A DNA stretch of 64,000 nucleotides, taken from an uncultured Kiritimatiellota bacterium (GTDB lineage: Bacteria > Verrucomicrobiota > Kiritimatiellia > RFP12 > DVOR01). Position 1 is the stretch's first letter; each line of letters opens with the position of its first letter. Location: NCBI GenBank assembly GCA_944389945.1, contig CALXOF010000011.1:539-64538 (forward strand), given 5' to 3'. The notes below the pieces were generated by a model. That model searched no databases and was not told where the DNA came from. It worked only from the letters and a program-made list of their open reading frames with translations. The position numbers and the translations under genes were made by a program. Below, one piece after another: positions 4,714-61,533 of the stretch.

Positions 4714-4857
4714 GTCAGATTCCTTTCGTTCTTGCTTTGCATTATAGCATAGGGACGGCAACGCTGCCCCTATGCAGGAAGACAGAGAACAGAGAATGGA
4801 GAACTGAACGCAGGGGTGTTGCCAATCAGCCAATCAGCGGGACGGCAACGCCGCCCC

Positions 4858-5916
4858 TTAATCGAAGTGGATGCGGGGGTCAATCAGCATATAGCAGAAG
4901 TCGGAGAGGAGGTTGCCGAGGAGCTGGATGGAGGCGGTCATCACGAGCATCGCCATGAAGACGGCGTAGTCATGCTGCATCAACGCTTCGAGGGAGAGCT
5001 GGCCCATGCCGGGGATTTCGAAGAGGGTCTCGATAATCATCGAACCGGCGAAGAGGGCGCCCAGGATGCTGCCGAAGCCCGTCGCGATGGGAATCAAGGC
5101 GTTGCGCAGGGCGTGGCACCAGATGGCGCGCCGACGCGTGGCGCCTTTGGCCAGCACCGTGCGCACATATTCCGCGCTCATCTGTTCCATCAGCGAGTTC
5201 TTCATCATGATGGTCAGCAGGGCGAAGGAGGTCATCACATAGGCCGTCACGGGCAGGACCATGTGGTAGGCGCGGTCCCAGAACTGGGTCCACCAGCCGG
5301 CCTCTCCGGCGGCCACGGCCTGCACCACCGCGTCACTCTCGAAGCCACCGATGGGGAAGATGTCCCACAGGCCATCGACCGTGCCACTGAGGCACATCTT
5401 CAGAATCATACCGACCGCGAAGGCGGGGATCGAATAGGCCGTGAAGACCAGCGCACTGGTCGCGAAGTCGAAGGGTGCCCCATGGCGCAAGGCCTTCGCG
5501 ATGCCCAGCGGGATACAGACCAGATAGCTCAGCAGAAAGGCGACTACGCCGAACCACACCGAGACCGGCAGACGCTCGCTGATGCGCTCCCACGCCGTCG
5601 AGTCCGGATACATATAGCTATGCATGGACATGCCGAGGTGGTTTTCCACGGCCCAGGTGTAATACTGTTCCCAGATGGGACGGTCGAAACCGAACTGTTT
5701 GTTCAGCGTCGCGCGCATCTCTTCGCTGACCAGGGCCGCGTTTGCGCCGCCGCCGGCCTCGCCGCCACCGCCGCTCGCGCCCTGCATCTGCGCCAACATC
5801 ATATCCACCGGGCCGCCCGGCAACAGACGCGTCAGCAGGAAGCAAACCACCGTGATGCCGAAAAAGGTCGGCACCAACAACATCAAGCGACGAATCAAAT
5901 ACTGCAACCGGTTCAT
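4858..5916 (-). CDS. ABC transporter permease, OppB/YejB-like (peptide/microcin-type)
   Basis: Start MNRLQYLIRRLMLLVPTFFGITV is in frame at residue 291 of the track ORF. Multiple TM helices, an EAA-like loop, and an extended glycine-rich periplasmic loop typical of the YejB subgroup. The upstream part of the track ORF is repeat-derived and low-complexity. Confidence 0.8.
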   Translation of the reverse strand: MNRLQYLIRRLMLLVPTFFGITVVCFLLTRLLPGGPVDMMLAQMQGASGGGGEAGGGANAALVSEEMRATLNKQFGFDRPIWEQYYTWAVENHLGMSMHSYMYPDSTAWERISERLPVSVWFGVVAFLLSYLVCIPLGIAKALRHGAPFDFATSALVFTAYSIPAFAVGMILKMCLSGTVDGLWDIFPIGGFESDAVVQAVAAGEAGWWTQFWDRAYHMVLPVTAYVMTSFALLTIMMKNSLMEQMSAEYVRTVLAKGATRRRAIWCHALRNALIPIATGFGSILGALFAGSMIIETLFEIPGMGQLSLEALMQHDYAVFMAMLVMTASIQLLGNLLSDFCYMLIDPRIHFD

Positions 5917-6134
5917 CGGAACTCCCCTGCTCTGCGGAAACGACAATACCTTACCATAATCCTCCACCCCAGCGCAAATGGGCCGGCTCAATACTGTCCG
6001 GGGAAAATGGGAATCGCAAAGACGCAAGGGTAGGCGCGAACCGCTTCGGGCTCCATCGGTCGCTCTGCGGCTTCGCCGCTGACCGCGACCGCCGCCCTCC
6101 GTTTCGCGCCTTGTCGGGTTCTCGTGTCCCCATC

Positions 6135-6187
6135 CGTCGCCCCGCAGGGGCGCTCCGTTCTCCGTTTTCCGTTTTCCGTTCTCCGGC
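6135..6187. repeat. Mosaic intergenic repeat, family B (CGTCGCCCCGCAGGGGCG hairpin + CCGTTCTCCGTTTTCCG heptamer tract)
   Basis: Same composite unit at about 10808-10880, 11141-11210, 12891-12940, 14575-14690, 15105-15145, 28395-28470, 32095-32160, 39655-39745, 50495-50665, 52929-53010, 57725-57795 and 61340-61430. Confidence 0.85.
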
Positions 6188-6194
6188 GAACAGC

Positions 6195-8867: not shown

Positions 8868-9084
8868 GGTTGTTTCCTTTCATCAGTAGTATAGCATAGG
8901 GGCGGCGGCGTTGCCGCCACCCCGGGGAATGGAGCAATACTGTCCGGGAAAGTCCTCTCGTCGACCAACAGGGCGCCAAACTGTACCTTATATAAATAAG
9001 GCCACAGTGAGACCGGTTCCCCATGGTCAATCATTCGATACAAACACATCTATTCAGTTGTCAAAGATCAGGCGTGGTTGCTTC

Positions 9085-9190
9085 ATGACTGCTCCACGCA
9101 CCTTTGCCAAAGACCTGTCATTCGCCTTCTCTAAATCACTATCAACCACACTTTCTATAGTAAGATATGCCATCATTAAGACCTGTCATT
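9085..9190 (+). repeat. Mosaic repeat family H (…CAAAGACCTGTCATTCGCCTTCTCTAAATCA…)
   Basis: About 100-bp AT-richer unit. Related copies at 39850-39960 (reverse orientation) and 42125-42240 (partial). Confidence 0.75.
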
Positions 9191-9307
9191 TGGTACTTCG
9201 CTCTCGCCCGTCGCGCGCTTGCCGCGCGCTCCGTTCTCCAGGGCACCGCAGGTGCCCCTCCCCTCCAATCAGCTAATCAGACAATCAGCAGCATAAGGGC
9301 GGTTCTG

Positions 9308-9322
9308 CCGCCCTTATGCTAC
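9308..9322 (+). promoter_or_regulatory. Extended -10-like box (CTTATGCTACAAT) abutting the uvrC start
   Basis: TGcTACAAT lies 7 nt before the GTG. The same CTTATGCTACAAT box sits immediately before the ATG of the 54140 CDS. Confidence 0.35.
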
Positions 9323-9331
9323 AATTGCGCT

Positions 9332-10807
9332 GTGAACGACATCCTGCGAGAGAAACTCAAACACCTGCCAGAAAAGCCCGGTTGCTACCTCTATCGCGAC
9401 CGCGCCGGTACCATTATCTACGTCGGCAAAGCCGTTAACCTCCGCCGGCGCGTGCAGAGTTACTTCCGCGCCTCCACCATGCGCCACGCCCCGCCCAAAC
9501 TCCGCAGTTTGGTCCACCACGTTGAAGACCTCGAAATTCGCGTCGTCCGCACCGAGGCCGAGGCCCTCCTCACCGAGAGCCACCTCATCAAGACCTACCG
9601 CCCCCGCTTCAACATCCTCCTGCGCGACGACAAGCGCTACCTCTCCCTCAAGGCCGACCCCTCGCGCCCCTTCCCCCGCATTGTCACCTGCCGCATCGTC
9701 CGCGACGACGGCGCCCGTTACTTCGGCCCCTTCCCCTCTTCCACCGTCGTCCGCGCCGCCCTCGACTTCACCGAGAAACGCTACGGCCTGCGCAAGTGCG
9801 GCAGCCTCGACCCCTGCCCCGACGACCACACCCACTGCATGGCCGACGTCATCCGTTTCTGCACCGCGCCCTGCCTCGGCCGCATCTCCGAGGCCGACTA
9901 CCGCGCCCGTTTCGACGAGGCCTGCGCCTTCCTCCGCGGCGAGCGCCCCGCCGTCATCGAAGAGGTCCGCCAACAGATGCTCGAGGCCTCCGCCAAAGAG
10001 GACTTCGAGAAGGCCGCCCGCCTCCGCGACACCTGGCTCGCCCTCAAAGAGCTCACCCGCGAACGCGCCCGCGCCCGCCTCATCCCCGCCCTCAAAAAAC
10101 CCACCGCCGAAGAGGGCCTCACCCAGCTCGCCGAACTCCTCGGCCTCGACCGCCCCCCGCGCGTCATCGAGTGCTTCGACATCTCGCACCTCATGGGCAC
10201 CCACACCGTCGCCTCCATGGTCGTCGCCGTCGACGGCATGCCCGACAAACGCCGTTACCGCCGCTTCCGCATCCGCTCCGTCTCCAACGACGACCCCCAC
10301 GCCATGGCCGAGGTCATCCGCCGCCGCTACACCCGCGTCCTCAACGAAGGCCTCCCCCTCCCGCACCTCATCCTCTGCGACGGCGCCGAACTCCAGGTCC
10401 GCGCCACTCGCGCCGTCCTCCGCGAACTCTGCCTCTTCGACGCCATCCCCGTCGCCGGCCTCAACGAACACTTCGAGGAAATCGTCCTCGATGACGGCCG
10501 CCCCAACCTCATCCTCCCCCGCGACTCCCCCGCCCTCCAGATTCTCATCCGCCTCCGCGACGAAGCCCACCGCTTCGCCATCACCTTCAACCGCGCCCTC
10601 CGCCTCCGCGCCCTCAAAGAATCCGTCCTCGACGAGCTCCCCGGCATCGGTCCCGCCCGCAAACGCCAGCTCCTCGCCGCCTTCGGCTCCCTCCGCCGCC
10701 TCGCCGCCGCCTCCGAGGCAGACATTGCCGCCCAGCCCGGCATCACCCCCACCCTCGCCAAAGCCATCAAAGACGCCCTCCAAGTCCGCGTCCACGACTT
10801 CGACTAA
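9332..10807 (+). CDS. uvrC: Excinuclease ABC subunit C (UvrC)
   Basis: GIY-YIG motif PEKPGCYLYRDRAGTIIYVGKAVNLRRRVQSYF, UvrBC/RNaseH-like middle region, C-terminal HhH (LDELPGIGPARKRQLL). GTG start in frame 7 nt downstream of a TGCTACAAT -10-like box. Confidence 0.9.
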   Translation: MNDILREKLKHLPEKPGCYLYRDRAGTIIYVGKAVNLRRRVQSYFRASTMRHAPPKLRSLVHHVEDLEIRVVRTEAEALLTESHLIKTYRPRFNILLRDDKRYLSLKADPSRPFPRIVTCRIVRDDGARYFGPFPSSTVVRAALDFTEKRYGLRKCGSLDPCPDDHTHCMADVIRFCTAPCLGRISEADYRARFDEACAFLRGERPAVIEEVRQQMLEASAKEDFEKAARLRDTWLALKELTRERARARLIPALKKPTAEEGLTQLAELLGLDRPPRVIECFDISHLMGTHTVASMVVAVDGMPDKRRYRRFRIRSVSNDDPHAMAEVIRRRYTRVLNEGLPLPHLILCDGAELQVRATRAVLRELCLFDAIPVAGLNEHFEEIVLDDGRPNLILPRDSPALQILIRLRDEAHRFAITFNRALRLRALKESVLDELPGIGPARKRQLLAAFGSLRRLAAASEADIAAQPGITPTLAKAIKDALQVRVHDFD

Positions 10808-11209
10808 GGGGCGCTGACGCGCCCCGGAGAACGGAGAACGGAAAACGGAGAACAGAGCGCGCGACAAGCGCGCGACGGGTAAGCTACTGTATAAGTGGCA
10901 TCAGCCGCCTCGTCCTAGTCGTCCTATAGGTCCTATTGGTCCTACCGCGTCGCCAGTTGGCACGTCGCAGACGTGCCGGGGGTGCAGGGAGAACGTCTCC
11001 CTGCCGGGGCGTGGGGCAGCGCCCCACATCCTCCAATCAGCTAATCTGTGGTTCCCATTTCTGGCAGTCTTCGTGGTTCTTCGTGCACCTTCGTGTCAGC
11101 CCCGCAGGGCAAACCTTCCACACTCTCCCAACAACTGGCCCGTCGCGCGCTTGCCGCGCGTTCCGTTTTCCGTTTTCCGTTCTCCGTTCTCCGGGGCGCG
11201 TTAGCGCCC

Positions 11210-11959
11210 CTAAAACGTACAGCGGCCGGTGGCGCGGAGGGAGAGATAGGGCGGATCGATGTCGGGGCGGCCGAGGATGATGTGGTCGCGCAGGGGGATG
11301 CCGATGACGCGGCCCGCGCGGGCGAGAGCATCAGTGGCCTCGATGTCGCGCGGGGAGGGCGTGACGTCGCCGGAAGGATGGTTGTGCGCCACGATGACCG
11401 AGCTGGCGTTGAGGAGAATCGCGCGGCGGAAGAGGGCGGAGGCGTCGATGAGCGTCTGGTCGCGCAGACCCGAGGTGATGAGGTCGGGGTCATCCTTGAT
11501 AGGCCGCCGACCGTGGTCCAGGAAGAGCGCCCAGAAGCCCTCGCGCACGTGCCGCGTGGAGGCGCCGAAGAACCGTTGCGCCATATCGCTAGCCAACAGC
11601 AACGGTTTGGGGAGTTTCCCCTGCTTGCGCGGGGCGAAGACGCGCCGCCCGAACTCGATGGTGGCCAGCAGGGTGGAAATCTTATCATCGCCGATGCCCT
11701 TGAGCGTGTCGCGATGCTGAGCCACAAAGGCGACGAACTCATCGTGGTTGTAGGGCCGCAGTTTGGCGAGACCTTCGGTCCCTAGCTCGGCCACGAAGTG
11801 CTTCGCCAGTTCGCGCACATTACACCCGCTGACACCCGTGCGGAAGATGATGGCGAGCAACTCATCGTCCGTCAACGCCTCGGGCCCCAGACGGCGGAGA
11901 CGTTCGCGCGGACGCTCCTCGGGCGGCAGGTCGGTCATTTTGCCCATGGCATTCCCCAT
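11210..11959 (-). CDS. radC: RadC-like JAB/MPN domain protein
   Basis: HNHPSGDVTPSPRDIEAT JAMM motif and RadC N-terminal HhH region (LPPEERPRERLRRLGPEALTDDELLAIIFRTG). The true start may be the internal MTD at about 11938 to avoid overlap with miaA. Confidence 0.85.
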   Translation of the reverse strand: MGNAMGKMTDLPPEERPRERLRRLGPEALTDDELLAIIFRTGVSGCNVRELAKHFVAELGTEGLAKLRPYNHDEFVAFVAQHRDTLKGIGDDKISTLLATIEFGRRVFAPRKQGKLPKPLLLASDMAQRFFGASTRHVREGFWALFLDHGRRPIKDDPDLITSGLRDQTLIDASALFRRAILLNASSVIVAHNHPSGDVTPSPRDIEATDALARAGRVIGIPLRDHIILGRPDIDPPYLSLRATGRCTF

Positions 11960-12878: not shown

Positions 12879-13391
12879 TCAATCTCGCCCGTCGCCCCGC
12901 AGGGGCGCTCCGTTCTCCGTTTTCCGTTCTCCGTTCTCCTCGCCATAGACCCACTGCAACACCATTAAGGCAAAGACCCCAATACAGATCGCTGAATCGG
13001 CGATGTTGAAGCAGGGGAAGTGGCTGGCGCCCCAGTGGAAATCGAGGAAGTCGATGACATAGCCCAGGCGGACGCGGTCGATGAGGTTGCCGATGATGCC
13101 GCCAAGGAGGAGCCCGGCGACGGGCGCGGCCCAGGCATGGTCGCCGAAAATCTTGCGCCAGAAGACGAAGCAGAGGATGACGGCCAAGACGCCAATGCCG
13201 GCGAGCCACAGTTGGGCCCCCTGAAACATCCCCCACGCGGCGCCTTGGTTGCGCACGTAGGTGAGGGCAAAGACCGAGAGGACGTCCACGCTCTCCCCGG
13301 GCTGGAAGTCGGCCACCACCCACAGTTTGGTGAGCTGGTCGAGGGCGAGGACGGCGAGGGCGACGGCAGAGGCGATGAGGTATTTCCGCAT
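12879..13391 (-). CDS. lspA: Lipoprotein signal peptidase II (LspA); C-terminal about 20 codons and stop supplied by a family-B repeat
   Basis: Four TM helices with conserved N..D and FNIADSAI motifs. The ORF reads through the CCGTTCTCCGTTTTCCG repeat, giving the tail GEENGERKTENGAPLRGDGRD. Confidence 0.85.
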   Translation of the reverse strand: MRKYLIASAVALAVLALDQLTKLWVVADFQPGESVDVLSVFALTYVRNQGAAWGMFQGAQLWLAGIGVLAVILCFVFWRKIFGDHAWAAPVAGLLLGGIIGNLIDRVRLGYVIDFLDFHWGASHFPCFNIADSAICIGVFALMVLQWVYGEENGERKTENGAPLRGDGRD

Positions 13392-14535: not shown

Positions 14536-14758
14536 AATGCCGATAGTATATCAAAAGGGGCGGCGAGGGGCGGCCGCTGGCCGCCCCAGAGAACGGAGAA
14601 CGGAGAACGGAGCGTGCAGGCGCGAAGCGCCAAACCTTCCACGGCCACGGAGCGCGCGACAAGCGCGCGACGGGTGAAGCCGTTGTACAATAAGCGCGAT
14701 GGGGAAGTTGCCCAAAAAGCCTAGCCTCCAAGTGGCTAAAATTCCCCCGATAAGGGGG

Positions 14759-14856
14759 CCTTTCTGGACCCTTAAGGGTTTCGGGTCGGACCACTATAGG
14801 GTCTCACCCTCGACCACTATAGTGGTTGACCTCGGACCACTATAGGGTCTCAGAAG
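14759..14856 (-). repeat. REP-like palindromic element copy A3
   Basis: Reverse-orientation copy of the GACCACTATAGTGGTC triplet unit. Confidence 0.85.
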
Positions 14857-14885
14857 GGCCCTTTACGGGCCCCTCTGGCCCCTCT

Positions 14886-14936
14886 CAGGAGATGCAGGAG
14901 ATGCAGGAGATGCAGGAGATGCAGGAGATGCAGGAG
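14886..14936. repeat. Simple tandem repeat, 9-bp unit CAGGAGATG x5.6
   Basis: Five perfect copies plus a partial one, located between the 3' end of the giant gene and the MraY-family gene start. Confidence 0.9.
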
Positions 14937-15072
14937 CGCCCTTTCGGGCGACGGACGAGCCGCTATCCAATCAGCTAATCAGCCAATCAGCGGGGCGCGT
15001 TAGCGCCCCTTACGTGTGCTGGCACGCCTTTAATCTGCAACACATCTGCGATTTCAGAGCGGGCGCACAGCG

Positions 15073-15102
15073 TAAAAAAGCGGGGCCGCCTTTCGGCGGC
15101 CT
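15073..15102 (-). terminator. Rho-independent terminator downstream of the giant gene
   Basis: On the minus strand: GGCCGCC-GAAA-GGCGGCC stem followed by CCGCTTTTTTACG. Confidence 0.7.
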
Positions 15103-15147
15103 CACTTGTCGCCCCGCAGGGGCGTTCTGTTCTCCGTTCTCTGTTCT

Positions 15148-39960: not shown

Positions 39961-40003
39961 CTGGCAAGAGAGCATGGTGCCAATCACCAGGTTTTAAACC
40001 GGT

Positions 40004-41777: not shown

Positions 41778-41783
41778 GGCGGA

Positions 41784-42089: not shown

Positions 42090-42122
42090 ATCGCGCCCCT
42101 GAAGGGGCGCTCAAAGAAGTCC
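42090..42122. repeat. Right 28-bp inverted repeat partner of 40004-40036
   Basis: GATCGCGCCCCTGAAGGGGCGCTCAAAG. Confidence 0.75.
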
Positions 42123-42345
42123 GATATACACTCCTACATTCAATTGTTAAAGATCAATCGCGGTGTAATGCTTAGTACCACGCCTCCTTACCAAAGGCCT
42201 GTCATTCGCCCTCCCTCTAAATCCCCACAACTTCTTCATTCCCATACCTATTCGCCATCTCCAAAATCTGTCACTGGCAGAGGGCGTTCCCTTCTGCCCA
42301 CCTTAGAGATGATAATTAGCATAATACTTCTCTTGTTACATCTCA

Positions 42346-44005: not shown

Positions 44006-44007
44006 CG

Positions 44008-45072: not shown

Positions 45073-45102
45073 CGTGGCAGAACCTTTGCGTCAAGACCTG
45101 AT

Positions 45103-47271: not shown

Positions 47272-47282
47272 AGCGCCCTCCT

Positions 47283-48464: not shown

Positions 48465-49006
48465 GATATTCTCCTTATTGATGCCAATGGACAACACGAG
48501 GACCGGGCATGGTACACCATGCCGGATGGTTTACACGACAGATTCTGATTGCGACAGACAACATAAAAGGCGCACTCCGTTTGCACGTTCCCAAACAGAG
48601 GCCGACCAAAGCCCGCAAAAGAAAACGTACAAACAAAAGCACGCCAGGGGATAACCCTGACGCGCCTCCGCGGTACCTTCGCCTTTTGCGTAGAAATTGG
48701 TCGTTTCTGTTTGGCGACTGTATGCGAAAACGCATCCAAAGCGCTCCAAAGGGGGAGCCCTCTGGAGCTATGTGCCATAAGAATAGCTCATAACCCGAGC
48801 AACTGTCAACTCTCAATAGTGTTCGGGGAAGGTTTTGTCCATGTATATTGTTTTCCGCGCCTCGAAGAGGGGTAAAGTGTTCTGCCACACTGCCAGACCT
48901 TTTTCCTGTAGAAAAGATCACGAGGCGCGAAACGGAGGGCGGCGGGCGCGGTCAGCGGCGAAGCCGCAGAGCGGCCGATGGAGTCCGAAGCGGTTCGCGC
49001 CCACAG

Positions 49007-49045
49007 TTGCGTCTTTGCGGTCTCCATTTTCCCCGGACAGGATTG
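49007..49045 (+). repeat. 39-bp direct repeat, right copy (see 42051-42089)
   Basis: Identical 39-mer. Confidence 0.85.
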
Positions 49046-49089
49046 GGGCAAAGAGCCCCCCGCCGGTGCCCCTTAAAGGGGCTTTCGCG

Positions 49090-49160
49090 GACCCTTAAGG
49101 GTTTCGCCTCGGACCACTATAGGGTCTCACCTCGGACCCTTAAGGGTTTCTCCAAGAGCC
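49090..49160 (-). repeat. REP-like element copy A6 (truncated)
   Basis: Contains GGACCACTATAGGGTCTCACC and two ACCCTTAAGGGT palindromes. Confidence 0.7.
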
Positions 49161-49415
49161 CTCCAGCCCCCTGGGGAAAGGGGGCCGGATGGCCTCTACA
49201 TCTGCTATATAATTATATAATAAGGTAGGGGCGAAAGGGGCGCTGATGCGCCCCGGAGAACGGTGCCAGTTTCCACGAAGACACAAAAGGAACGCAAGGG
49301 CCTGGGCACTTCACCGTTCGGCGCATATGCGCCTCACTCACTATCCCCATCCCTTGCGTTTCTGGAGTTTTGTGATACAACAGTTTTGTGATACAACAGT
49401 GATGGGAAATAAAAG

Positions 49416-49448
49416 TGACGGGGACATGCCCCGTCACTTTCGATTGGC
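49416..49448 (-). terminator. Rho-independent terminator after the acidic protein gene
   Basis: Perfect hairpin GTGACGGGGCATGTCCCCGTCAC followed on the minus strand by TTTTATTTCCC. Confidence 0.65.
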
Positions 49449-49488
49449 CATTCAGCCGATGCTGTTGTCGCGGCTTTCGCCGACAGGC

Positions 49489-50331: not shown

Positions 50332-50676
50332 GATTCAACCTTCCTTCTGGATTGTCTTTCGTGCGGTAGACACCGGGCAGACTTCCCGCCAAGCATATCA
50401 CGCAACGCCATTGTAGCATAATCCCCGCGACAACCAATAATATCGGGGAGAGCTTTTCACGAAGACACAAAGGAACGCAAGGGACTGGCACAAGGGGCGC
50501 TAGCGCCCCCCGGAGATTAGCTGATTGGCTGATTGGTGGCGGCTGACGCCGCTCTGCACAACGCCCCCTCCGTCGCGCGCTTGCCGCGCGTTCCGTTCTC
50601 CGTGGCCGTGGAAGGTTTGTCCCTTCGGGCCTGCACGCTCCGTTTTCCGTTCTCCGGGGATGGCCATCGGCCGCCC

Positions 50677-50692
50677 CCTATTATGTTATAAT
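50677..50692 (+). promoter_or_regulatory. -10 box (TATTATGTTATAAT) upstream of flp
   Basis: TATAAT ends 8 nt before the ATG at 50699, implying a leaderless or very short leader. Confidence 0.4.
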
Positions 50693-50698
50693 GACGGC

Positions 50699-50842
50699 AT
50701 GAGATCCGGGCAGACGATGGTCGAGTATATCCTGGTGCTGGTGGCGCTCTTGGGGGCGGCGCTGGCGGCGGGTTTCTTGGTCAGGGCCGTGGACGCGCAG
50801 GAGGCGCGGACGGAGACGTTGCTCGGGTCGGGTTACCCTTAA
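50699..50842 (+). CDS. Flp-family type IVb pilin 1
   Basis: MRSGQTMVEYILVLVALLGAALAAGFLV has the Flp G-x4-EY prepilin peptidase motif; 47 aa. Confidence 0.7.
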   Translation: MRSGQTMVEYILVLVALLGAALAAGFLVRAVDAQEARTETLLGSGYP

Positions 50843-51637: not shown

Positions 51638-52928
51638 GGCCGGCCAAGCGGTGGTCTTGCTGCTGGCGCTCTTGGTGGCGCTCGCGGCCATCGTGGTCTG
51701 GATTGCCGTCTCGAACAGCCTCACCCTGCGGCGTCTGCGCCTCCGCGACGGCGGGGACGCGGCGGCGCTCGCGGCGGCGCGTTGGCAGGCGGCGGGGCTG
51801 AATCTGGTGGGCGAGCTGAACCTCATCCAGGCCTATATGTTGGCAGACAACGCGGACAACGCCGCGGCCGCGGAGGCCCTCCACGAACTGCGCCAGCGTG
51901 TCCAGTTGGCGACCCCCTTCCTGGCGCTCGTCTCGGCCAGCGAGACGGCCGCGGCCAACGACCTGCCGGAGATTCCGGAAGCGGCGGAGGTGGTGCGCGA
52001 AATCGCCGACGAGGCCCTCTTCCAAGACTTCTATCCCGGCGCGGAGGCGGACTTCCGCGCGATGGCCCAGGCGGCCACCCTACGTCCCCTCCATGCGGCC
52101 CCGGCCAGTCCGGGAATGGGTCCGGACGGCGGCAACCTCTTGGTGAATCAGGATTTCTACGAAGCCGTGTTGGGCGACGATTGGTGTTGGTTCTGGTTCA
52201 ACGCCTATTCCTTCCTGCAACACTACGGCGGCCACACCCACTTCGGGCCCGTGCCGCCCCTGGCCACGGAGCCCTTCCTCGGCCTCCGCTTGACGACGTT
52301 GGAAACCTCGCTGAACGACCTCATTGGCGCCGGCGCTCCCATCAACGCACAGTTGGTCGAGTTGGGCCACCCCACCCTTCAGCCGCCCGCGGACAACGGC
52401 ACGGCGGCGGCCCTCGAGCGGACGCAGGTGGTGCGGTGGAGCGCCTATGACTCCGGCTCTTGGGGCCCGTGGGAGGCCATGCACGCGGGCGAATTGCCAA
52501 TCGATGGCACGCTGAAAGAGGAATACGACTACTTCGGCGCCTCGGCGGCCATCTCGGTCGCGGAGGAGGGCTATGAGTGGCTGGCCGTGGCCAAGGCCTT
52601 CGGCGACGTGGGCGGCGGCAACCCGACCGCGGCGGGTCTGGTGTTGGGCGGCTTTGACGACGTGCGCCTTATCCCGGTGGACGCGGGCGACGTGGGCATC
52701 ACCGCCTTCAACCCGACGTGGATTCGCCACCTCCGCCGCCATATCCAGAGCTACGCCTCCACGGGCCTGACCTTCGATAACTGCCGTTACTGCGAGGCCC
52801 TGCGCAAGTTCGACAACCGCGCCTGGCGTACCCAAGTCATCGCCTGGCTCGCCCAAAACGGCCACACCTGCCGCCGTCCCACCCCAGACGGCGACGGTTC
52901 CGGCGGCGGCGCCCGATTCGGCCACTAG
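51612..52928 (+). CDS. TadG-like (Tad_N) putative pilus-associated protein
   Basis: MRRSISRAKAGQAVVLLLALLVALAAIVVWIAV is a TadE/TadG-type N-terminus. 438 aa, overlapping the previous gene by 26 bp. Confidence 0.5.
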   Translation: MRRSISRAKAGQAVVLLLALLVALAAIVVWIAVSNSLTLRRLRLRDGGDAAALAAARWQAAGLNLVGELNLIQAYMLADNADNAAAAEALHELRQRVQLATPFLALVSASETAAANDLPEIPEAAEVVREIADEALFQDFYPGAEADFRAMAQAATLRPLHAAPASPGMGPDGGNLLVNQDFYEAVLGDDWCWFWFNAYSFLQHYGGHTHFGPVPPLATEPFLGLRLTTLETSLNDLIGAGAPINAQLVELGHPTLQPPADNGTAAALERTQVVRWSAYDSGSWGPWEAMHAGELPIDGTLKEEYDYFGASAAISVAEEGYEWLAVAKAFGDVGGGNPTAAGLVLGGFDDVRLIPVDAGDVGITAFNPTWIRHLRRHIQSYASTGLTFDNCRYCEALRKFDNRAWRTQVIAWLAQNGHTCRRPTPDGDGSGGGARFGH

Positions 52929-53045
52929 GGGCGGCGGCGTTGCCGCCGCCCTGGAGAACGGAGACCGGAAAACGGAGAACAGAGCGTGCGGCAAGCGCGC
53001 GACGGAGATGCCGCTGTATGACCTCCTTTAGCACATCCCAAAAGG

Positions 53046-53150
53046 GTCCTTTCTGAGACCCTATAGTGGTCCGAGGTCAACCACTATAGTGGTCGGAGGT
53101 GAGACCCTATAGTGGTCGGGGTCGAAACCCTTAGGGGTCCAGAAAGGGCC
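53046..53150 (+). repeat. REP-like palindromic element copy A7
   Basis: GAGACCCTATAGTGGTCCGAGGTCAACCACTATAGTGGTCGGAGGTGAGACCCTATAGTGGTCGGGGTCGAAACCCTTAGGGGTCC. Confidence 0.85.
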
Positions 53151-53232
53151 CTTTAGAGGCCCCCTGCGAACGGTAAAACTTTCCCCGGAGGGCAGTGGGT
53201 GTGCTAGAATAACGGCAGAAAGGATGTGAACG

Positions 53233-54139: not shown

Positions 54140-55264
54140 ATGAATCCGATTACGTATTGCATGAATGTCCACCCGGGAGAGGACTTGGGCGCTGTGATGA
54201 AGGCGTTGGAGACGGTGACCTTGCCGTTGCGCGACGCACTTGGCGAAGAGGAAGTCTTCCCGCTGGGGTTACGGTTTGGCAGTCAGGCGGCCAAGGCCCT
54301 GCGCGTGCCCGAGACGATGCGTTCGCTCGTTGGCTTCATGCAGCGCAACCACTTGACGGTCATCGGCATCAATGGCTTCCCTTATGGGACCTTCCATGGG
54401 CAGACCGTCAAAACCCAGGTCTACGAGCCGGATTGGGAGAACGAGCACCGCGTCTCTTACACGCGCGACCTCTTCTACGCGCTCACGCGTCTGCCGGGGG
54501 CGCGTCTCTCCAACGACCACCGCCTCTCCGTCACCACCGTGCCGCTGGCCTATGACCGCGGGCAGGGCGTCACCGAGGCCATGCTCCGGAACATCTGCGC
54601 GATGGCCCTCTTCCTGCGTAAGCTGGAGGGCTTCACCGGTCTGCGTATGTGCCTGGCCCTGGAGCCCGAACCCGATTGCCTGTTGCAGGACACCCGCACC
54701 ACCATCGACTTCTTCGAGCGCCTCTGGCAACATCCGGATTGGAACCCCGCCTATCGCGACCTCATCGGCCTCTGCTTCGACACCTGCCACTTCGCCGTTG
54801 GCTACGAAGACCCCCTCAACGCCCTCCGCCTCCTCGTCTCGTCTAACGTCCCCATCTCCCGCATTCAGGTCTCCGCCGCCCTCGAATTCACCCAATACGC
54901 CACCGCGAACGACCTGGAGCCCTTCCTCGACTCCGTCTACCTCCATCAGACCGTCCGCCGCGAGGACGATGCCTCCATCACCTGCTTCCCGGATCTCACG
55001 CGCGACATCCTTCCCGAGCTCATCGGCCACCGCGGCCGCATCCACTATCACATCCCCCTCACGTGGAACGGCACCGGCCGCCTGGGCACCACCCGCCACG
55101 CCCTCACCCCCGCCTTCTGGCGCTACGTCCGCGCCGGCGGTTGGCCCGTCGAGATCGAGTCCTACGCCTACTTCGTCTATCCCGACTACCTCCGCACCCG
55201 CACCCTCTCCGAATCCCTCCTCGCCGACTTGAATTGGACTCGCGAGCAACTCCGCAACGCCTAG
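54140..55264 (+). CDS. Xylose-isomerase-like TIM-barrel protein (sugar phosphate isomerase/epimerase family; possibly EboE-like)
   Basis: Start MNPITYCMNVHPGEDLG; internal ALEPEP and CFDTCHFAVGYE motifs resemble the AP-endonuclease-2/xylose-isomerase TIM barrel. ATG is immediately preceded by CTTATGCTACAATAACGTT. Confidence 0.55.
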   Translation: MNPITYCMNVHPGEDLGAVMKALETVTLPLRDALGEEEVFPLGLRFGSQAAKALRVPETMRSLVGFMQRNHLTVIGINGFPYGTFHGQTVKTQVYEPDWENEHRVSYTRDLFYALTRLPGARLSNDHRLSVTTVPLAYDRGQGVTEAMLRNICAMALFLRKLEGFTGLRMCLALEPEPDCLLQDTRTTIDFFERLWQHPDWNPAYRDLIGLCFDTCHFAVGYEDPLNALRLLVSSNVPISRIQVSAALEFTQYATANDLEPFLDSVYLHQTVRREDDASITCFPDLTRDILPELIGHRGRIHYHIPLTWNGTGRLGTTRHALTPAFWRYVRAGGWPVEIESYAYFVYPDYLRTRTLSESLLADLNWTREQLRNA

Positions 55265-55266
55265 CC

Positions 55267-55659
55267 ATGAAGCACAACGTCAAAGTCACCATCCTTGACA
55301 AGAAATGCTATCCTGAGCTCCAGCGACAGTATTGCAAAGACCCCAACGCCGGTCCCTGCCCCTGCTACAACATCGGCGATGAGTTCATCTTTATGCGTGA
55401 TGAAGGGCGCGATGACTATTGGCACCTGGGCCTCAACACCCTCGTCAAGACAACCGGCAATCCCGACACCGTCGCCGGCGGGCCCAAGATGCCCTTCTGC
55501 TCCGAACTCTGGGACGCCATCTCCCGCTATATCTACACCGGTCTGCAGGGCGGCTCCATCATGGAGGGCTGGATGACCCAGGAAAACACCATGATCACCT
55601 GCTGTAACGACGGCACCCGCCCCGTCATCGTCAAAATCGAACGTATCGACTACGAATAA
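55267..55659 (+). CDS. Small cysteine-rich protein, TIGR04076-like
   Basis: 130 aa; MKHNVKVTILDKKCYPELQRQYC..GPCPCYNIGDEFIF matches my recollection of the TIGR04076 family; assignment tentative. Confidence 0.45.
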   Translation: MKHNVKVTILDKKCYPELQRQYCKDPNAGPCPCYNIGDEFIFMRDEGRDDYWHLGLNTLVKTTGNPDTVAGGPKMPFCSELWDAISRYIYTGLQGGSIMEGWMTQENTMITCCNDGTRPVIVKIERIDYE

Positions 55660-55663
55660 GCCC

Positions 55664-57385
55664 ATGCACGTCTTCGCACGCCTGGCCGCCGTGGCCGCAC
55701 TGACGCTCGTCGCCGGGGCGGCCTCCGCCGCGCCGACCTACCTCCTGCAACGGACCGACGGCCCCATCACGGTGGACGGCGTGCTCGACGAGTCCACCTG
55801 GGCCAAGGCCGCGCCCACCAGCCCCCTGCGCGACCTCTCCGGCGGCCCGAGCGACTACGCCGCCGACATCCGCATGGCCTACGACGACACCTGCCTCTAC
55901 GTCGCCGCACGCCTCCCCGCCACGCGCCTCCGCGCCACCCTCACCGAGCGCGACAGCGTCATCTACCGCGACGACGACTTCGAGGTCTTCATCGACCCCT
56001 TCGCCCGCGGCCGCGACTATCTGGAGCTGGAAATCAACCAATTGGGCACCGTGTGGGACCTCTTCCTCACCGCGCCCTACCGCGACCCCGAGTGCCTGGC
56101 CCTGCACGATTGGGACATCAAGGGCCTGAAGACCGCCGTCACCCTCCAAGGCACCCTCAACGACGACACCGATGACCAAGGCTGGTGCGTCGAAATCGCC
56201 TGGCCCTGGGCCTCCATCACCGGCCACTCCAACCACCCCCGCACCGGCACACCCCCGCCCCCCGGCACCGAGATGCGCATGAACTTCTCGCGCGTCGACC
56301 ACCCCGCCCCCGGCGACGAACGCAACACCGTCTGGGCCCCCACCCGCCAGGCCACCATCCACGCCCCCGAGCACTGGGGCCGCGTCCGCCTCTCGCCCAA
56401 CCCCGTCGGCACCCCGGAGGCCTTCCCGCCCACCGTCGGCCTCTGGGTCCACGCCGATAATCCCGACCTCTCCCCCGCCGATGTCCGCGCCTGGAAAGCC
56501 GCCGGCATCACCACCCTCATCCTCGGCGGCACCGACGCCAACATCGCCAAGCTCGCCCAATGGGCCCACACCGAGGGCCTCCGCGCCGTCGCCTGGCTCT
56601 GGGCCCTCAACCGCCCCGACGACCCCGTCGCCCTCGCCCACCCCGACTGGCACGCCGTCAGCCTCGAAGGCAAGTCCACCTTCCGCCCGGAGGACCGTCC
56701 CTTCGTGGCCTACTACCAGTTCCTCTGCCCCACCCACCCCGAGGTCCGCGCCTACCTCGCCGACAAGGCCCGCGCCCTCGCCGCGCTCCCCTGCGTCGAC
56801 GCCGTCCAGCTCGACTACATCCGTCTGCCCGATGTCGTCCTCCCCAAGGCCCTCTGGCCCACCTACGGCCTCGACATGTCCACCCTCCTCCCGCCCTACG
56901 ACTTCTGCTACTGCCCCCGTTGCAAGGCCGCCTTCGGCAAGGAGCCCGACCCCAACGACCCCGCCTGGGCCGACTTCCGCCTCACGCAGGTCGCCGTTGT
57001 CGCCAACACCGTCGCCGACGCCGTCCGCGCCGCCGGCAAACCCTGCGGCGCCGCCGTCTTCCCCACCCCGCGCCTCGCCGCCAAAATGGTCTACCAAGAC
57101 TGGGCCCGTTTCCGCCTCGACTTCGCCCTCCCCATGGACTACGCCTCCTTCTACAGCGAAGGCGACCCGTGGGTTCTCGACCGCCTCCGCGAGGCCCAAA
57201 GCGCCATCGACGGCGCCTTCCCCATCCTCCCCGGCCTCCACATCCCCGATTTCTACACCCGTCCCGACGCCCTCCGCGCCCTTATCCAGGCCATCCTCAA
57301 AGAAAACCCCGCCGGCTTCTGCCTCTTCTCCGACAGCGAACTCCGCCGCCTCCACGAACAACACCCCACCGCCCCCCTCCTATAA
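55664..57385 (+). CDS. Secreted protein with N-terminal CBM9-like/DOMON-like domain and C-terminal glycoside-hydrolase-like TIM-barrel region
   Basis: Signal peptide MHVFARLAAVAALTLVAGAASA. DGVLDESTWAKA...FEVFIDP..YLELEINQLGTVWD is the CBM9-like fold pattern. The C-terminal half resembles GHL/DUF4015-type domains. Confidence 0.55.
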   Translation: MHVFARLAAVAALTLVAGAASAAPTYLLQRTDGPITVDGVLDESTWAKAAPTSPLRDLSGGPSDYAADIRMAYDDTCLYVAARLPATRLRATLTERDSVIYRDDDFEVFIDPFARGRDYLELEINQLGTVWDLFLTAPYRDPECLALHDWDIKGLKTAVTLQGTLNDDTDDQGWCVEIAWPWASITGHSNHPRTGTPPPPGTEMRMNFSRVDHPAPGDERNTVWAPTRQATIHAPEHWGRVRLSPNPVGTPEAFPPTVGLWVHADNPDLSPADVRAWKAAGITTLILGGTDANIAKLAQWAHTEGLRAVAWLWALNRPDDPVALAHPDWHAVSLEGKSTFRPEDRPFVAYYQFLCPTHPEVRAYLADKARALAALPCVDAVQLDYIRLPDVVLPKALWPTYGLDMSTLLPPYDFCYCPRCKAAFGKEPDPNDPAWADFRLTQVAVVANTVADAVRAAGKPCGAAVFPTPRLAAKMVYQDWARFRLDFALPMDYASFYSEGDPWVLDRLREAQSAIDGAFPILPGLHIPDFYTRPDALRALIQAILKENPAGFCLFSDSELRRLHEQHPTAPLL

Positions 57386-57831
57386 TGCCAGAGATGAGAA
57401 CCGCAGATTGCGCAGATTTGTTGCAGATTTTTGGCGTGCTACCGCACGCAGGACTGCCAGAATAGTTTTATCACAAAGGCCACAAAGAACCACAAGGGCC
57501 ACAAAGGGAATCAACTGATTGGTTGATTGGAAAGGTGTGGGGCGCCGCCCCACGCCCCGGCAGGGAGAAGTTCTCCCTGCACCCCCGGCACGTCTGCGAC
57601 GTGCCAATAGGCGACGCGGTAGGACGGCTAGGACGGGCGGCTTCGCCGTCGGAAGTTTGAAAGTTTAGAGGTTTGGAGGCTTGGCTTGATTGGGCGGGGC
57701 TTCGCCCCACACCCCTTCAACCCCGCCCGTCGCGCGCTTGCCGCGCGCTCTGTTCTCTGTTCTCTGTTCTCTGGGGCGCGTTAGCGCCCCATTTGCCGCC
57801 AGGCAAGGGAAATTGGTATACTTAACTTACT

Positions 57832-58101
57832 ATGAGACGGCTACTCCTTTGGTTGATGGCGTTGGTGGCGTTGCCGGTGGCGGCGCTCCCCGCCCCCGGC
57901 TACTGCGACGAAGTCCACCACCACTTCTTCGCCACCCTCGCCGCCGAACCCGCCGGCCAGCCCCTCGACACCGATGAGAACCTCGCCCCCATCCCCCTCA
58001 CCGCCGCCGAGATCGACGCCGCCATCGATGACGGCACCATCACCGACGGCAAGACCATCATCCTCTGGCACCTCTACAAGCGCAAACACCCCTCCCCCTG
58101 A
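57832..58101 (+). CDS. Small secreted hypothetical protein
   Basis: Signal peptide MRRLLLWLMALVALPVAALPAPG; followed by a strong terminator. Confidence 0.35.
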   Translation: MRRLLLWLMALVALPVAALPAPGYCDEVHHHFFATLAAEPAGQPLDTDENLAPIPLTAAEIDAAIDDGTITDGKTIILWHLYKRKHPSP

Positions 58102-58180
58102 CGCCGGCCGATCGCCGTGCGGATTGGCGGCGCACCGGAAGGTGTCCGACAGAAAGCGGACATACTATATCTAGTAGGTC

Positions 58181-58217
58181 GACCCTTTTGAGACGTGCTC
58201 CCAAAAGGGTCTTTTTT
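58181..58217 (+). terminator. Rho-independent terminator
   Basis: GACCCTTTTG-(loop)-CAAAAGGGTC followed by TTTTTTG. Confidence 0.7.
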
Positions 58218-58334
58218 GCCCCCTGAAAAGGTCGGTTTCGGAGGCGTTTTGGGCGCCCTTCCGGGGCACCTTTGCCAGATATTGCACAACCCATTGATTT
58301 TATAGCAACAAAAGAGGGCCTTGTCGAAAACCTG

Positions 58335-58445
58335 AAAAGTCTCGCGGAGAAACCGTTAGGGTTTTGAGGTGAAACCTCCTAGGTTTCGGGTCCAAACCGT
58401 AACGGTTTCGAGGTGAAACCTAGGAGGTTACAAAACGCACCCTTT
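58335..58445. repeat. Two tandem about 40-bp units, each internally palindromic (GAGGTGAAACCTCCTAGGTTTC / GAGGTGAAACCTAGGAGGTTAC)
   Basis: aaaccgttagggttttgaggtgaaacctcctaggtttc followed by aaaccgtaacggtttcgaggtgaaacctaggaggttac, in an AT-richer convergent intergenic region. Confidence 0.6.
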
Positions 58446-58533
58446 GGCGCGGAGATTGAGCCCCAAAAGGTCGCCTCCCCAAAAGGGGGCGACCTGCTAC
58501 ATCTAGTGGCACCGGGGGTGTCGGGGCGGAGGG

Positions 58534-60306: not shown

Positions 60307-60682
60307 GGCACGAGTTTAACATATCCATGCGCGCGGCCGGGGCACGCGCGGCAGATTCCTTCATGGGACGGCTCTGCCGTATGCAGGCGCAGGACTGCCA
60401 AGATGGGAAACCGCAGATTTCGCAGATTAGGGCAGATTGAGGGCGTGCTGGCGCACGCAGGACTGCCAGAATAGTTTTATCACAAAGGCCACAAAGAACC
60501 ACAAGGGCCACAAAGGAAATTGGCTGATTGGCTGATTAGCTGATTGGAAGGCGTCGCGGTAGGACATATAGGACGGGGTGGCTAATGCCGCCCTGTATGT
60601 ACAGCGGCCTCTTCGTCGCCCCGGAGGGGCGGGCCAAGCCTCCAAGCCTCTAAACTTCCAAGCTTCCCACAGCGGGGCGCTT

Positions 60683-61135
60683 TTAGCGCTCCGCTGTGTG
60701 CTGTCCGGGGGTGGCGAGGTAGGTGGGGAGGTCGTCAATGAGGTGGGCGGGGAGGAGGTTGGCGGCTTTGAGGGAGGGGGCGTCGAAGGGGACCCAGGCG
60801 AAGGCAATCCAGGGCTCGGCGGCGGGGAGGGCCGCGGGGGGCGGGGGCAGGGTGGAGACGTCGAGGCGGAAGATGAGGTTGATCTCGCAGTGGCGTTCGC
60901 CGCCTTGGACGAAGGCGTTTTCGGTGACGGCGAGGAAGTCGCCGGCGGTGGAGTCCAGGCCGAGTTCTTCCTTGACTTCACGGACGAGGGCCTGTCGGCC
61001 GGTCTCGTTGAACTCGATGTGTCCGCCGGGGAGGTAGGCGCGGCCGCCTTTGGCGGGTTTGCAGAGGAGGATGTGACCATCGCGGATGCAGACGCCGCGG
61101 GCGATGGTCTCGATGTTGGCGTTTTCGTAGGACAT
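60683..61135 (-). CDS. NUDIX hydrolase
   Basis: Nudix box GGHIEFNETGRQALVREVKEELGL. Confidence 0.85.
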   Translation of the reverse strand: MSYENANIETIARGVCIRDGHILLCKPAKGGRAYLPGGHIEFNETGRQALVREVKEELGLDSTAGDFLAVTENAFVQGGERHCEINLIFRLDVSTLPPPPAALPAAEPWIAFAWVPFDAPSLKAANLLPAHLIDDLPTYLATPGQHTAER

Positions 61136-61533
61136 AGCGTGGAAGTTTGGAAGTTTGGAGGCTTGGAAGTTTGGAGGAGCCCCGGAGGTTGAAGCCCGAG
61201 CCGCCGCCGTTGGCGGCGATGAGACCGAACGTTGCGCGGCACCCGCAAAGGGCACAAAGGACTGCCAGGATGGGGAACCGCCGATTCCGCCGATTGGAGC
61301 CGATTAGGGGCCGGCTGCCGCCGGCAGGACTGCCAGAGGGCGCTACGCGCCCGGAGAACAGAGCGTGCAGGCCCGAAGGGACAAACCTTCCACGGCTACG
61401 GAGAACGGAGCGCCCCTGCGGGGCGACGAAAAATCGGAAGCCAGAGGCGGTTTGCCGGTCGCCCCGGAGGGGCGGAACCAAGCATCCAAGCCTCGAAGCT
61501 TCCAAGCTTCCCGCGTAAGGGCGCGGGGCGCCC

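Follow-up and report, generated by a model that had tools for sequence, protein, structure and literature searches.

What fills the spacers between the genes of an uncultured Kiritimatiellota bacterium, where the same few short words recur from one intergenic region to the next? The question is raised by a 64,000-nt stretch of contig CALXOF010000011.1 (assembly GCA_944389945.1, positions 539 to 64,538; hereafter the window), a chromosomal sequence of ~65% GC with housekeeping genes including uvrB, uvrC, miaA, lspA, iPGM and folE, which also holds the gene for a 4005-aa protein and two low-GC islands. A first-pass annotation had described its intergenic space as assembled from a small vocabulary of modular repeats, and this observation is confirmed. 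We conclude that the spacers are probably a lineage-specific mosaic of very small, non-autonomous repeat elements, similar in kind to repetitive extragenic palindromes (REP), bacterial interspersed mosaic elements (BIME) and Neisseria intergenic mosaic elements (NIME).

The motif families named at first reading are present at or near the coordinates given for them, against a chance expectation of essentially zero. Octamer tracts of the CCAAACTT type occur at 1731–1766, 2014–2049, 32210–32235, 57650–57685, 60634–60667, 61140–61175 and 61478–61511, and the octamers CCAATCAG/CTAATCAG give 10 matches (at 4822, 9265, 11033, 14967, 50513, 57515 and 60524) where 0.02 are expected. Nonamers of CCGCAGATT followed by GGCGTGCT.CCGCACGCAGGACTGCCAG were found at 33963, 57400 and 60408, with the variant CCGCCGATT at 61278. 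Heptamer tracts (GGAGAAC/CCGTTCT) of at least two units, with their hairpins, occupy 13 sites (6157, 10826, 11165, 12912, 14588, 15129, 28415, 32119, 32254, 39693, 50642, 52953 and 57752), and weaker tracts were detected in addition at 4782, 49250 and 61350–61410. Two families required correction. The sequence ACAAAGGCCACAAAGAACCACAAGGGCC, a long CACAAAGG motif, recurs exactly at 57473 and 60482 only, the other sites proposed for it (49270, 50460, 54030 and 61240) being degenerate relatives. Furthermore, four GGGGCGGCGGCGTTGCCGCCGCCCC-type hairpins were said to follow stop codons; this applies to the one at 52928 and to a related hairpin at 4838, while those at 8899 and ~39650 lie upstream of start codons.

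For comparison we used 236 kb of a near-conspecific metagenome-assembled genome (MAG), ‘uncultured Kiritimatiellaeota bacterium BRZ_EK_bin27’ (CALXMT01), whose uvrC and permease genes are 95–97% identical to those of the window; window and MAG together amount to ~300 kb. A 20-nt anchor from the REP-like array matched at least 30 stretches; those listed all belong to this MAG, on at least 21 contigs. As the same modules occur on these other contigs, they are genome-wide and not confined to the window, and the idea of a lineage-specific, unusually dense combinatorial repeat system is borne out.

The repeats are concentrated in spacers. In window plus MAG, the commonest 11-mers reach 25–100 copies in 71 kb of intergenic sequence versus 0–5 in 225 kb of coding sequence, and tandem tracts with periods of 7–10 nt are 16 times denser in spacers (2.6/kb; 190 tracts in 73 kb) than in coding sequence (0.16/kb), with dozens of spacer arrays of period 7, 8, 9 and 23 reported by Tandem Repeats Finder. 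The heptamer, CCAATCAG, CCAAACTT, CACAAAGG, GCAGATT, AGGACTGCCAG and AAACCTTCCAC families each have 0–1 coding instances, and 36 of the 37 RGARAAC tracts with three or more units are intergenic. Perfect hairpins with stems of at least 6 bp show a milder excess (6.2/kb in spacers versus 2.1/kb in coding sequence). When searched by blastn against the window and the MAG, 63% of the window’s intergenic bases had a copy elsewhere, versus 6.9% of its coding bases; the former value is a minimum, as the search could draw on no more than part of one related genome. Copy coverage reaches 76–100% in the richest spacers, among them 10808–11209, 61136–61533, 57386–57855 and 14536–15147 at 84–100%. The statement that spacers are almost entirely repeat-built therefore stands for at least 63% of intergenic bases and is otherwise overstated, with no listed family in spacer 58102–58533 or in the spacers within the low-GC island. 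A separate hairpin array of 22-bp period (AAACCKTWAGGTTTCGAGGTG-like) lies at 58328–58422, in a spacer without other families, and has no match in the MAG sample. Neither Rfam at gathering thresholds nor tRNA/tmRNA scans returned a match in the window, and a suspected near-promoter palindrome, CCTTATWWATAAGG, had no exact or one-mismatch match in the window.

The basic block is a GC-rich hairpin plus a tandem tract of a 7–9-nt unit, and blocks are chained as hairpin-tract-hairpin-tract. Of the tracts of all families taken together, 45% lie within 6 nt of a perfect hairpin of at least 6 bp, versus 9% of random spacer positions. About ten word families dominate, including GGAGAAC/AGAGAAC, CCAATCAG/CTAATCAG, CCAAACTT/CCAAGCYT, CACAAAGGN, CCGCAGATT, GTCCTAYNN, CAGGAGATG and CACAGAGGN; hairpin arrays of 22–23-bp period are also present. 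The heptamer unit runs from a variable GC hairpin through (RGARAAC)3-10 and AGA to a second hairpin. In 30 of 37 units its 5' hairpin stops exactly where the tract begins; this hairpin has at least 12 different stems, some of them unique and overlapping the stop codon of the neighbouring gene. The 3' hairpin, found in 33 of the 37, takes the forms ACGCCCCTGCGGGGCGAC, ACGCGCGRCAAGCGCGCGAC and ACGCCCGCAAGCGGGCGAC, with compensatory variants (CGCCCC/GGGGCG, CGCGCG/CGCGCG, CGCCCG/CGGGCG), and when read on the opposite strand begins with CGTC or TGTC. CGTC also tags one of the two REP superfamilies that Di Nocera et al. 2013 described (PMC3733652).

Tagged hairpins (CGTCGCCCCGCAGGGGCG or CGTCGCGCGCTTGCCGCGCG) are frequent throughout as the hairpin of a block. 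Selection by a [C/T]GTCGC start yielded 80 in ~300 kb. Of these, 68 lie in spacers, where 59 directly precede a tract (44 heptamer, 9 CATCTCCTG, 5 CCAATCAG, 1 CCAAACTT). The main types (CGT- or TGT-CGCCCC GCA GGGGCG; CGCGCG CTTGC CGCGCG) have the last tag base as first stem base. Stems are 5–7 bp long and made of G:C pairs only, loops measure 3–5 nt, and the ‘tail’ is the tandem tract itself.

Such blocks could be a by-product of local mutation, if hairpins stall replication and slippage expands the adjacent sequence with no movement between loci. Tracts do adjoin hairpins, strains gain and lose whole units, and plain (CCAATCAG)n microsatellites exist in many unrelated metagenome contigs. We nevertheless give this explanation only a slight chance, because composites of several modules, 100–250 bp long, recur at unlinked loci with 77–95% identity, because a 35-nt element of fixed length appears in four tract contexts, and because the tracts are dominated by some ten specific words, not a random set. 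The 35-nt micro-element, CGTGCAGG-hairpin-CCAAACCTTCCACGGCYA, is present in 30 copies. It interrupts heptamer tracts, which continue on either side of it, lies within CCAATCAG and CACRAAG (CACAAAGG) tracts, and adjoins GCAGATT tracts. Its inner hairpin carries two-sided changes at three of five pairs, with a covariation score reached by none of 500 shuffles. Read as module ‘sentences’, the window and 30 MAG loci use about ten modules in varying order with recurrent strings. A metagenome scan for (CCAATCAG)3 was set aside: its matches (at least 120) lay on unrelated contigs (GC 0.32–0.71), none with other modules, and are generic microsatellites. They are therefore uninformative on the distribution of the system, and a single tract word is not diagnostic.

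The arrangement of modules within spacers follows the genes and not their transcription. Between co-directional genes the sense strand of the tract is G-rich in 41 cases and C-rich in 43. The G-rich strand points away from the nearest gene in 91 of 124 tracts (p = 2e-7), rising to 54 of 61 within 150 nt and 33 of 35 within 60 nt, with the same polarity at gene starts and stops. Because the G-rich strand reads away from the nearest gene, islands are dyad-symmetric; they have an inverted foldback layout with the outer hairpins beside the flanking genes, and the arms of inverted pairs lie 259–508 nt apart with other modules between. The convergent uvrC–radC spacer is, stop to stop, one 402-bp element (10808–11209) flanked on both sides by TAA, in each case in a stop-codon context. 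Its 73-nt inverted arms (10807–10879 and 11139–11211, 93% complementary) each consist of a hairpin, (GGAGAAC)4 and a CGTC-tagged hairpin, the interior of the spacer (10807–11211) holds GTCCTA nonamers, a triple hairpin, CCAATCAG, CTTCGTG nonamers and a AAACCTTCCAC unit, and as a single strand the whole folds into one long hairpin (z = −13.4). Spacer 61136–61533 is likewise bounded by inverted 43-nt octamer arms (61141–61183 and 61469–61511), between which lie CCGCCGATT nonamers, two copies of AGGACTGCCAG, heptamers interrupted by the 35-nt micro-element (61364–61398) and a CGTC-tagged hairpin (61411–61428).

Placement of this kind could mark a functional gene-boundary system under selection, whether of terminators or insulators, of stabilisers of mRNA 3' ends or of site arrays for a nucleic-acid-binding protein; the C-rich strand, with its hairpin and then a C/T-rich tract, would stop transcription entering a gene. 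Polarity is indeed strongest beside genes, and some stop codons are directly abutted by hairpins, as first noted. Strong hairpins (dG <= −25) are about twice as common after stops (19%) as elsewhere (8–9%), and a lenient terminator scan found 15 sites versus 8.5 ± 3.1 expected, the CGTC-tagged hairpin with its CT-rich heptamers matching the lenient pattern and always directed at the adjacent gene. Compensatory changes preserve the hairpins, and C-rich octamer tracts lie just 5' of start codons (e.g. 61143, and 11718 in the related locus L053), resembling the TAACTGA repeats of Beggiatoaceae (PMC4679880).

We consider a gene-boundary function unlikely as the primary explanation of the repeats, with a low probability. 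Orientation is unbiased relative to transcription, and a Rho-utilisation or insulator idea, which predicts a C-rich sense strand between co-directional genes, was rejected on the counts of 43 versus 41. Canonical hairpin plus T-tract terminators coexist with the units, one of them (15101–15084) downstream of a heptamer unit. The lspA reading frame incorporates a heptamer unit at its 3' end, and Rfam has no match. Unit number, the presence of blocks and whole cassettes vary among near-identical strains, the vocabulary is swapped between related species, and close relatives are without repeats. The same evidence speaks against regulatory sites, U-tract-less terminators or small RNAs, which the first-pass annotation had proposed, as the main explanation; a secondary, co-opted role at gene boundaries may exist.

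Variation between strains proceeds by whole units. In contig L046, which has no substitution over 4.1 kb, spacer 57386–57855 contains one more heptamer at 57758 (+7 bp), and L032, 99.6% identical, has one more octamer in spacer 32078–32273 (+8 bp). Four tracts differ in L045, whose flanking genes are 96–98% identical, with one nonamer, two octamers and three octamers absent (−9 bp in 60307–60682; −16 and −24 bp in two tracts of 61136–61533). These indels of 7, 8, 9, 16 and 24 bp are exact multiples of the local unit. Larger changes were also observed. L045 has an extra 141-bp block in spacer 60307–60682 (octamers, triple hairpin, TAGGAC unit and hairpin) between two octamer tracts, and a hairpin exchanged for a compensated variant (GCGTGC..GCACGC to GCCGGC..GCCGGC), and in L033 the heptamer cassette of 28312–28694 is swapped for unrelated modules, with the hairpin array and the promoter-proximal part kept. 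The identity of spacer 57386–57855 between the window and L045 was discarded as a sign of selection, as it sits in a ~3-kb identical tract which probably reflects recombination. Elsewhere in L045 a 130-aa gene (55267–55659) is missing or replaced, both neighbours being kept (window 55250–55750 versus L045 1777–1809). The window and MAG locus L025 arrange the genes around uvrB, the permease gene and uvrC differently, with synteny breakpoints in repeat-rich spacers at CCAATCAG tracts (window 4822–4837 and 9265–9289; L025 1880 and 2270); either the repeats were sites of a genuine rearrangement or the MAG is misassembled here.

Errors of metagenome assembly or binning might themselves create repeats. 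Contigs of other assemblies end within them, at 57452, 2062 and 42068, and an exact 283-bp duplication at 1572–2138 could be an assembly error. As an account of the repeats at large an artefact is nonetheless highly improbable: independent assemblies from different samples (ENA, Logan) reproduce the spacers at 99.6–100% identity, and repeats are found on at least 21 contigs of another MAG. Indeed, the ENA metagenome scaffold ONAT22-1_SAMEA6814568 scaffold_624 is 100% identical to the window, and several further samples supply near-identical contigs.

Loci of more distant relatives were ordered on a divergence ladder of iPGM homologues, which their sources label Kiritimatiellia or Kiritimatiellae. 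L053 and L054 (GCA_965337195.1, GCA_965339085.1; iPGM 88% aa identity, GC 59%) have the same architecture. They share CCAATCAG, CCAAACTT and GCCTTCGTG tracts with the window, add words of their own (TAAGGAGCT, GGAATGC) and their own 22-bp hairpin array, and carry an inverted pair of CCAATCAG tracts in the iPGM–pepP spacer at the place of the window’s heptamers. L178 (GCA_045613865.1; iPGM 88%, GC 47%) again shows the same architecture in entirely different words, with CAATGTTGC in an inverted pair and a hairpin array of TTCAAACAGGTGCTGTTTGACC. L179 (iPGM 94%, GC 68%) has little or no such architecture in 11.7 kb, L055 and L056 (85%, GC 52–53%) have little or none, and L057 (79%, GC 63%) has none. 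The architecture is therefore patchy among related Kiritimatiellia, and its words turn over. On L055, a Kiritimatiellia contig without the repeats, a type V (Cpf1/Cas12a) CRISPR-Cas locus and an IS110-family (Transposase_20) gene lie near iPGM (17269–21560).

The architecture (hairpin plus 7–9-nt tract, 22–23-bp arrays, inverted edge pairs) was thus seen in three species, with GC from 47% to 65% and largely different unit sequences. Conservation of the layout and not of the words might point to clade-specific protein machinery that generates, copies or binds the units, with islands acting as gene-boundary insulators, a proposal to which we attach a small chance. Candidates would be an unrecognised hairpin-directed enzyme resembling HUH transposases or REP-associated tyrosine transposases (RAYT), or a single-strand-binding cold-shock/OB-fold system reading the tract words. 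The octamer CTGATTGG, identical to the core of the Y-box (inverted CCAAT) bound by cold-shock-domain proteins, lies at 50513–50536, 57515–57530 and 60519–60547 and is a possible lead to a binding protein.

Confinement to spacers, indifference to transcription, nesting, dispersal of composites, turnover between strains and replacement of words between species fit selfish or neutral DNA better than a fixed regulatory code, hence our preference for a mosaic of small mobile repeats. Its units would spread as DNA, inserting beside or into existing hairpins and tracts. A ‘tract plus hairpin’ unit that inserts beside an existing hairpin would yield alternating chains of hairpins and tracts, and would also place varied hairpins before one tract type. 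If insertion on the gene side of a boundary hairpin were lethal, islands would acquire the polarity of outward hairpins and inward tracts. The obvious candidate for the enzyme is a HUH/RAYT-type transposase that would act on single strands, recognise hairpins and have its gene elsewhere in the genome. Once units are inserted, the islands would be remodelled through replication slippage, unequal recombination and gene conversion between copies. Effects on termination, insulation or mRNA stability would be secondary.

Several observations weigh against this interpretation. Neither the window nor the 236 kb of MAG (~300 kb, a small genome fraction) yielded a transposase, a RAYT or a multi-copy gene: Pfam scans of the window genes and of ten genes beside MAG hairpin arrays gave housekeeping families only, and all-against-all BLASTP gave no multi-copy gene. 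The compared loci include no unambiguous target-site duplication and no clean pair of empty and filled sites. The 141-bp indel of L045 is bordered by two octamer tracts, so that a deletion by recombination would explain it equally well, and no recent burst is visible because copies are 77–95% alike, not near-identical. Compensated and stop-abutting hairpins would also fit selection for function. Where composite elements fill whole spacers, geometry alone accounts for part of the polarity rule, although such filling is itself notable.

The remaining islands illustrate how these modules combine. The spacer downstream of uvrB (1549–2051) contains a hairpin array of 23-bp period at 1572–1632, again at 1855–1915, and a CCAAACYT octamer tract at 1731–1766, again at 2014–2049, all doubled by the 283-bp tandem duplication. 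The duplication (1572–2138) is exact (100%) and covers the last 86 nt of uvrB, the hairpin array and the octamer tract; it is either very recent or an assembly artefact, and a contig from another assembly (L047) stops within it at 2062. Adjoining this repeat-rich spacer is the second low-GC segment (1–1400, ~50%), with a gene for an ankyrin-repeat protein. The short spacer 4782–4857 has a heptamer-like tract (4782–4804), two units of CCAATCAG (4822–4837) and a hairpin, GGGACGGCAACGCCGCCCC, abutting the permease stop codon. On the minus strand, spacer 5917–6194 holds a long dispersed unit (5986–6114), a CGTC-tagged hairpin (6135–6152) and (GGAGAAC)4 (6157–6184), 10 nt past the MatE stop codon.

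Two islands reach into annotated genes. The divergent spacer 8868–9331 contains a hairpin (8899–8923), a CGTC-tagged hairpin (9209–9228) with one heptamer unit, a second hairpin and a CCAATCAG tract (9265–9289), and is overrun by the public uvrC call (546 aa, from 9167), which starts ~55 codons before the start indicated by coding potential (9332). The extra N-terminus spans the CGTC-tagged hairpin, the heptamer unit and the CCAATCAG tract, the GIY-YIG domain begins at residue 71, and the annotated N-terminus is probably spurious. On the minus strand at 12879–12939, (GGAGAAC)4 and a CGTC-tagged hairpin (12890–12907) lie within the last ~60 nt of the lspA frame, whose C-terminal ~20 codons and stop codon come from this unit, past the end of the Peptidase_A8 domain.

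The 612-bp island 14536–15147 combines plus-strand heptamers (14588–14608) interrupted by the 35-nt micro-element (14613–14647), a CGTC-tagged hairpin (14653–14672), a 23-bp hairpin array (14775–14852), (CAGGAGATG)5.7 at 14886–14936, a CCAATCAG tract (14967–14990), the canonical terminator 15101–15084 and inverted, minus-strand heptamers (15129–15149). The gene that follows (15148–28311) encodes the 4005-aa protein, with no Pfam match on record, and lies directly downstream of a gene whose 380-aa product has a prepilin-type methylation motif at its N-terminus. Strain L033 encodes a giant protein of 3987 aa, in DNA that is only ~95.5% identical with 47 gap positions. Beyond it, spacer 28312–28694 carries a heptamer cassette (28412–28520) and a 23-bp hairpin array (28591–28676). 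Paralogous genes with AAA-ATPase_like and PDDEXK_9 domains (28695–30290 and 40206–41777, 79% identical over 1.6 kb) flank in opposite orientation a ~10-kb segment with a DUF4143 ATPase gene between them, and could serve as substrates for inversion.

In spacer 32078–32273 the order is hairpin, heptamers (32119–32146), CGTC-tagged hairpin (32152–32168), hairpin, octamers (32210–32235), hairpin and an inverted heptamer remnant (32254–32267). Spacer 33957–34085 (plus strand) has CCGCAGATT nonamers (33963–33995), the hairpin GGCGTGCTACCGCACGC and AGGACTGCCAG (34012–34022), and 35559–35686 holds a hairpin array of 23-bp period immediately 3' of a TPR gene. The divergent spacer 39605–40205 carries a hairpin with heptamers (39693–39720) and a CGTC-tagged hairpin (39725–39742), then a dispersed ~130-bp unit (40009–40141). 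Dispersed long units in 41778–42089 terminate in a 39-bp repeat (42051–42089) at the left edge of the low-GC island. This ~6.9-kb island (42090–49006, ~51% GC) lies between exact 39-bp direct repeats of the dispersed unit (42051–42089 and 49007–49045), encodes DUF805, coiled-coil and 13-repeat Sel1 proteins, a PrsW-family protease and one unknown protein, and has the appearance of an insertion, or of a segment prone to deletion, between repeat copies; the BRZ_KF contig (L032) stops at 42068. To its right, spacer 48900–49488 holds the long dispersed unit (48920–49045, including the second 39-bp repeat), a hairpin array (49088–49150), a hairpin with heptamer, degenerate CACRAAG nonamers at ~49270 and a 16-bp tandem repeat (49366–49400).

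The divergent spacer 50332–50716 contains degenerate CACRAAG nonamers (~50460), a CTGATTRG tract (50513–50536), a CGTC-tagged hairpin (50571–50590) and a heptamer tract split by the 35-nt micro-element (50603–50637, minus strand), and 52929–53232 (plus strand) a stop-abutting hairpin (52928–52952), heptamers (52953–52980), a CGTC-type hairpin and a 23-bp hairpin array (53054–53140). Spacer 57386–57855 runs through GCAGATT nonamers, hairpin, AGGACTGCCAG, four units of CACAAAGGC, CTGATTGG, triple hairpin, TAGGAC units and GGAAGTTTG octamers to a CGTC-tagged hairpin (57728–57747), CTCTGTT heptamers (57748–57773), a hairpin and a promoter-like sequence. Spacer 60307–60682 repeats the module order of 57386–57530 and continues with TAGGAC units, hairpins and CCAAGCYT octamers (60634–60667).

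These repeats provide a dense, many-family example of REP/BIME-like organisation outside the Proteobacteria. They affect MAG quality and gene models in the lineage, because contigs break in islands and gene calls overrun them (the uvrC N-terminus, the lspA tail). Strains that are otherwise identical differ by whole tract units, which makes the tracts ready variable-number tandem repeat (VNTR) markers for tracking strains of this uncultured organism in metagenomes, and graded relatives which share, replace or are without the system make possible a comparative enzyme search and a test of selfish against co-opted origins.

Among known systems, BIMEs (built of REP, or palindromic units, in Escherichia coli and relatives) are likewise extragenic, high-copy mosaics of few short motifs around GC-rich palindromes, their hairpin arrays sometimes in tandem, between genes and in 3' untranslated regions (PMC2817692, PMC3116915). 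The window shares the short GC-rich extragenic palindromes in high number and their mosaic combination with a limited set of other motifs. It differs in that the motifs between hairpins are tandem 7–9-nt tracts and more than ten module families cover at least 63% of spacer DNA; furthermore, no RAYT was found in ~300 kb, the phylum is different and there is no sequence similarity. NIMEs of Neisseria, in which RS units are split by dRS3 hairpins classed as CGTC-1 REPs, resemble the islands in their variable units between short CGTC-tagged palindromes (PMC3733652), in their large mosaic spacers and in their link with recombination and rearrangement, whereas the units here are short tandem tracts and micro-hairpins instead of 50–150-bp RS blocks, with GC-only stems of 5–7 bp.

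REPINs and the CGTC/GTAG REP superfamilies also have an unpaired CGTC/TGTC tag, inverted head-to-head pairs able to fold into larger structures, compensatory hairpin diversity and lineage-specific families. The terminal CGTC/TGTC tag of these REPs is present here. Published CGTC families have stems of 8–9 bp starting with A/T pairs, loops of 4–5 nt and CCA tails (PMC3733652), features which the G:C-only stems of 5–7 bp do not share; in contrast to REPINs, inverted partners are 259–508 nt and not tens of nt apart, and no associated RAYT was found in ~300 kb.

Intergenic tandem tracts of the heptamer class are known as cyanobacterial short tandemly repeated repetitive sequences (STRR), along with the small dispersed repeats (SDR) of Nostoc and the TAACTGA repeats of Beggiatoaceae. 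Elhai et al. reportedly described mobile elements of 21–27 nt in Nostoc in 2008, in a study cited by PMC5861425, and the 35-nt micro-element nested in the tracts here is SDR-like. Some TAACTGA repeats stand just upstream of start codons (PMC4679880). As in STRRs, tandem heptamers are restricted to spacers at many loci; the words (GGAGAAC, CCAATCAG, CCAAACTT, CACAAAGGC, CCGCAGATT and others) and the host, a member of the Kiritimatiellia in another phylum, are different, and tracts here are joined to hairpins, belong to many families and form inverted pairs at spacer edges. Miniature inverted-repeat transposable elements (MITE) and foldback elements compare well in size (300–600 bp), long terminal inverted repeats, confinement to spacers and lack of coding capacity, and terminal inverted repeats do bound short non-coding elements here. 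Unlike those elements, copies in this genome are mosaic and not uniform, the terminal repeats themselves consist of tandem units, no clear target-site duplication was seen and no cognate transposase was found in ~300 kb. Mycobacterial interspersed repetitive units (MIRU) and other VNTRs are intergenic tandem repeats with strain-dependent unit number, a polymorphism also seen here, but in units of 7–9 nt instead of 40–100 nt, attached to hairpins at hundreds of dispersed mosaic sites. Judged by sequence, the repeats belong to no described family, while sharing part of what defines REPINs and MITEs. What is new is the physical coupling of hairpins to tandem 7–9-mers in more than ten families, the dyad-symmetric spacer islands, their density and their host among the uncultured Kiritimatiellia.

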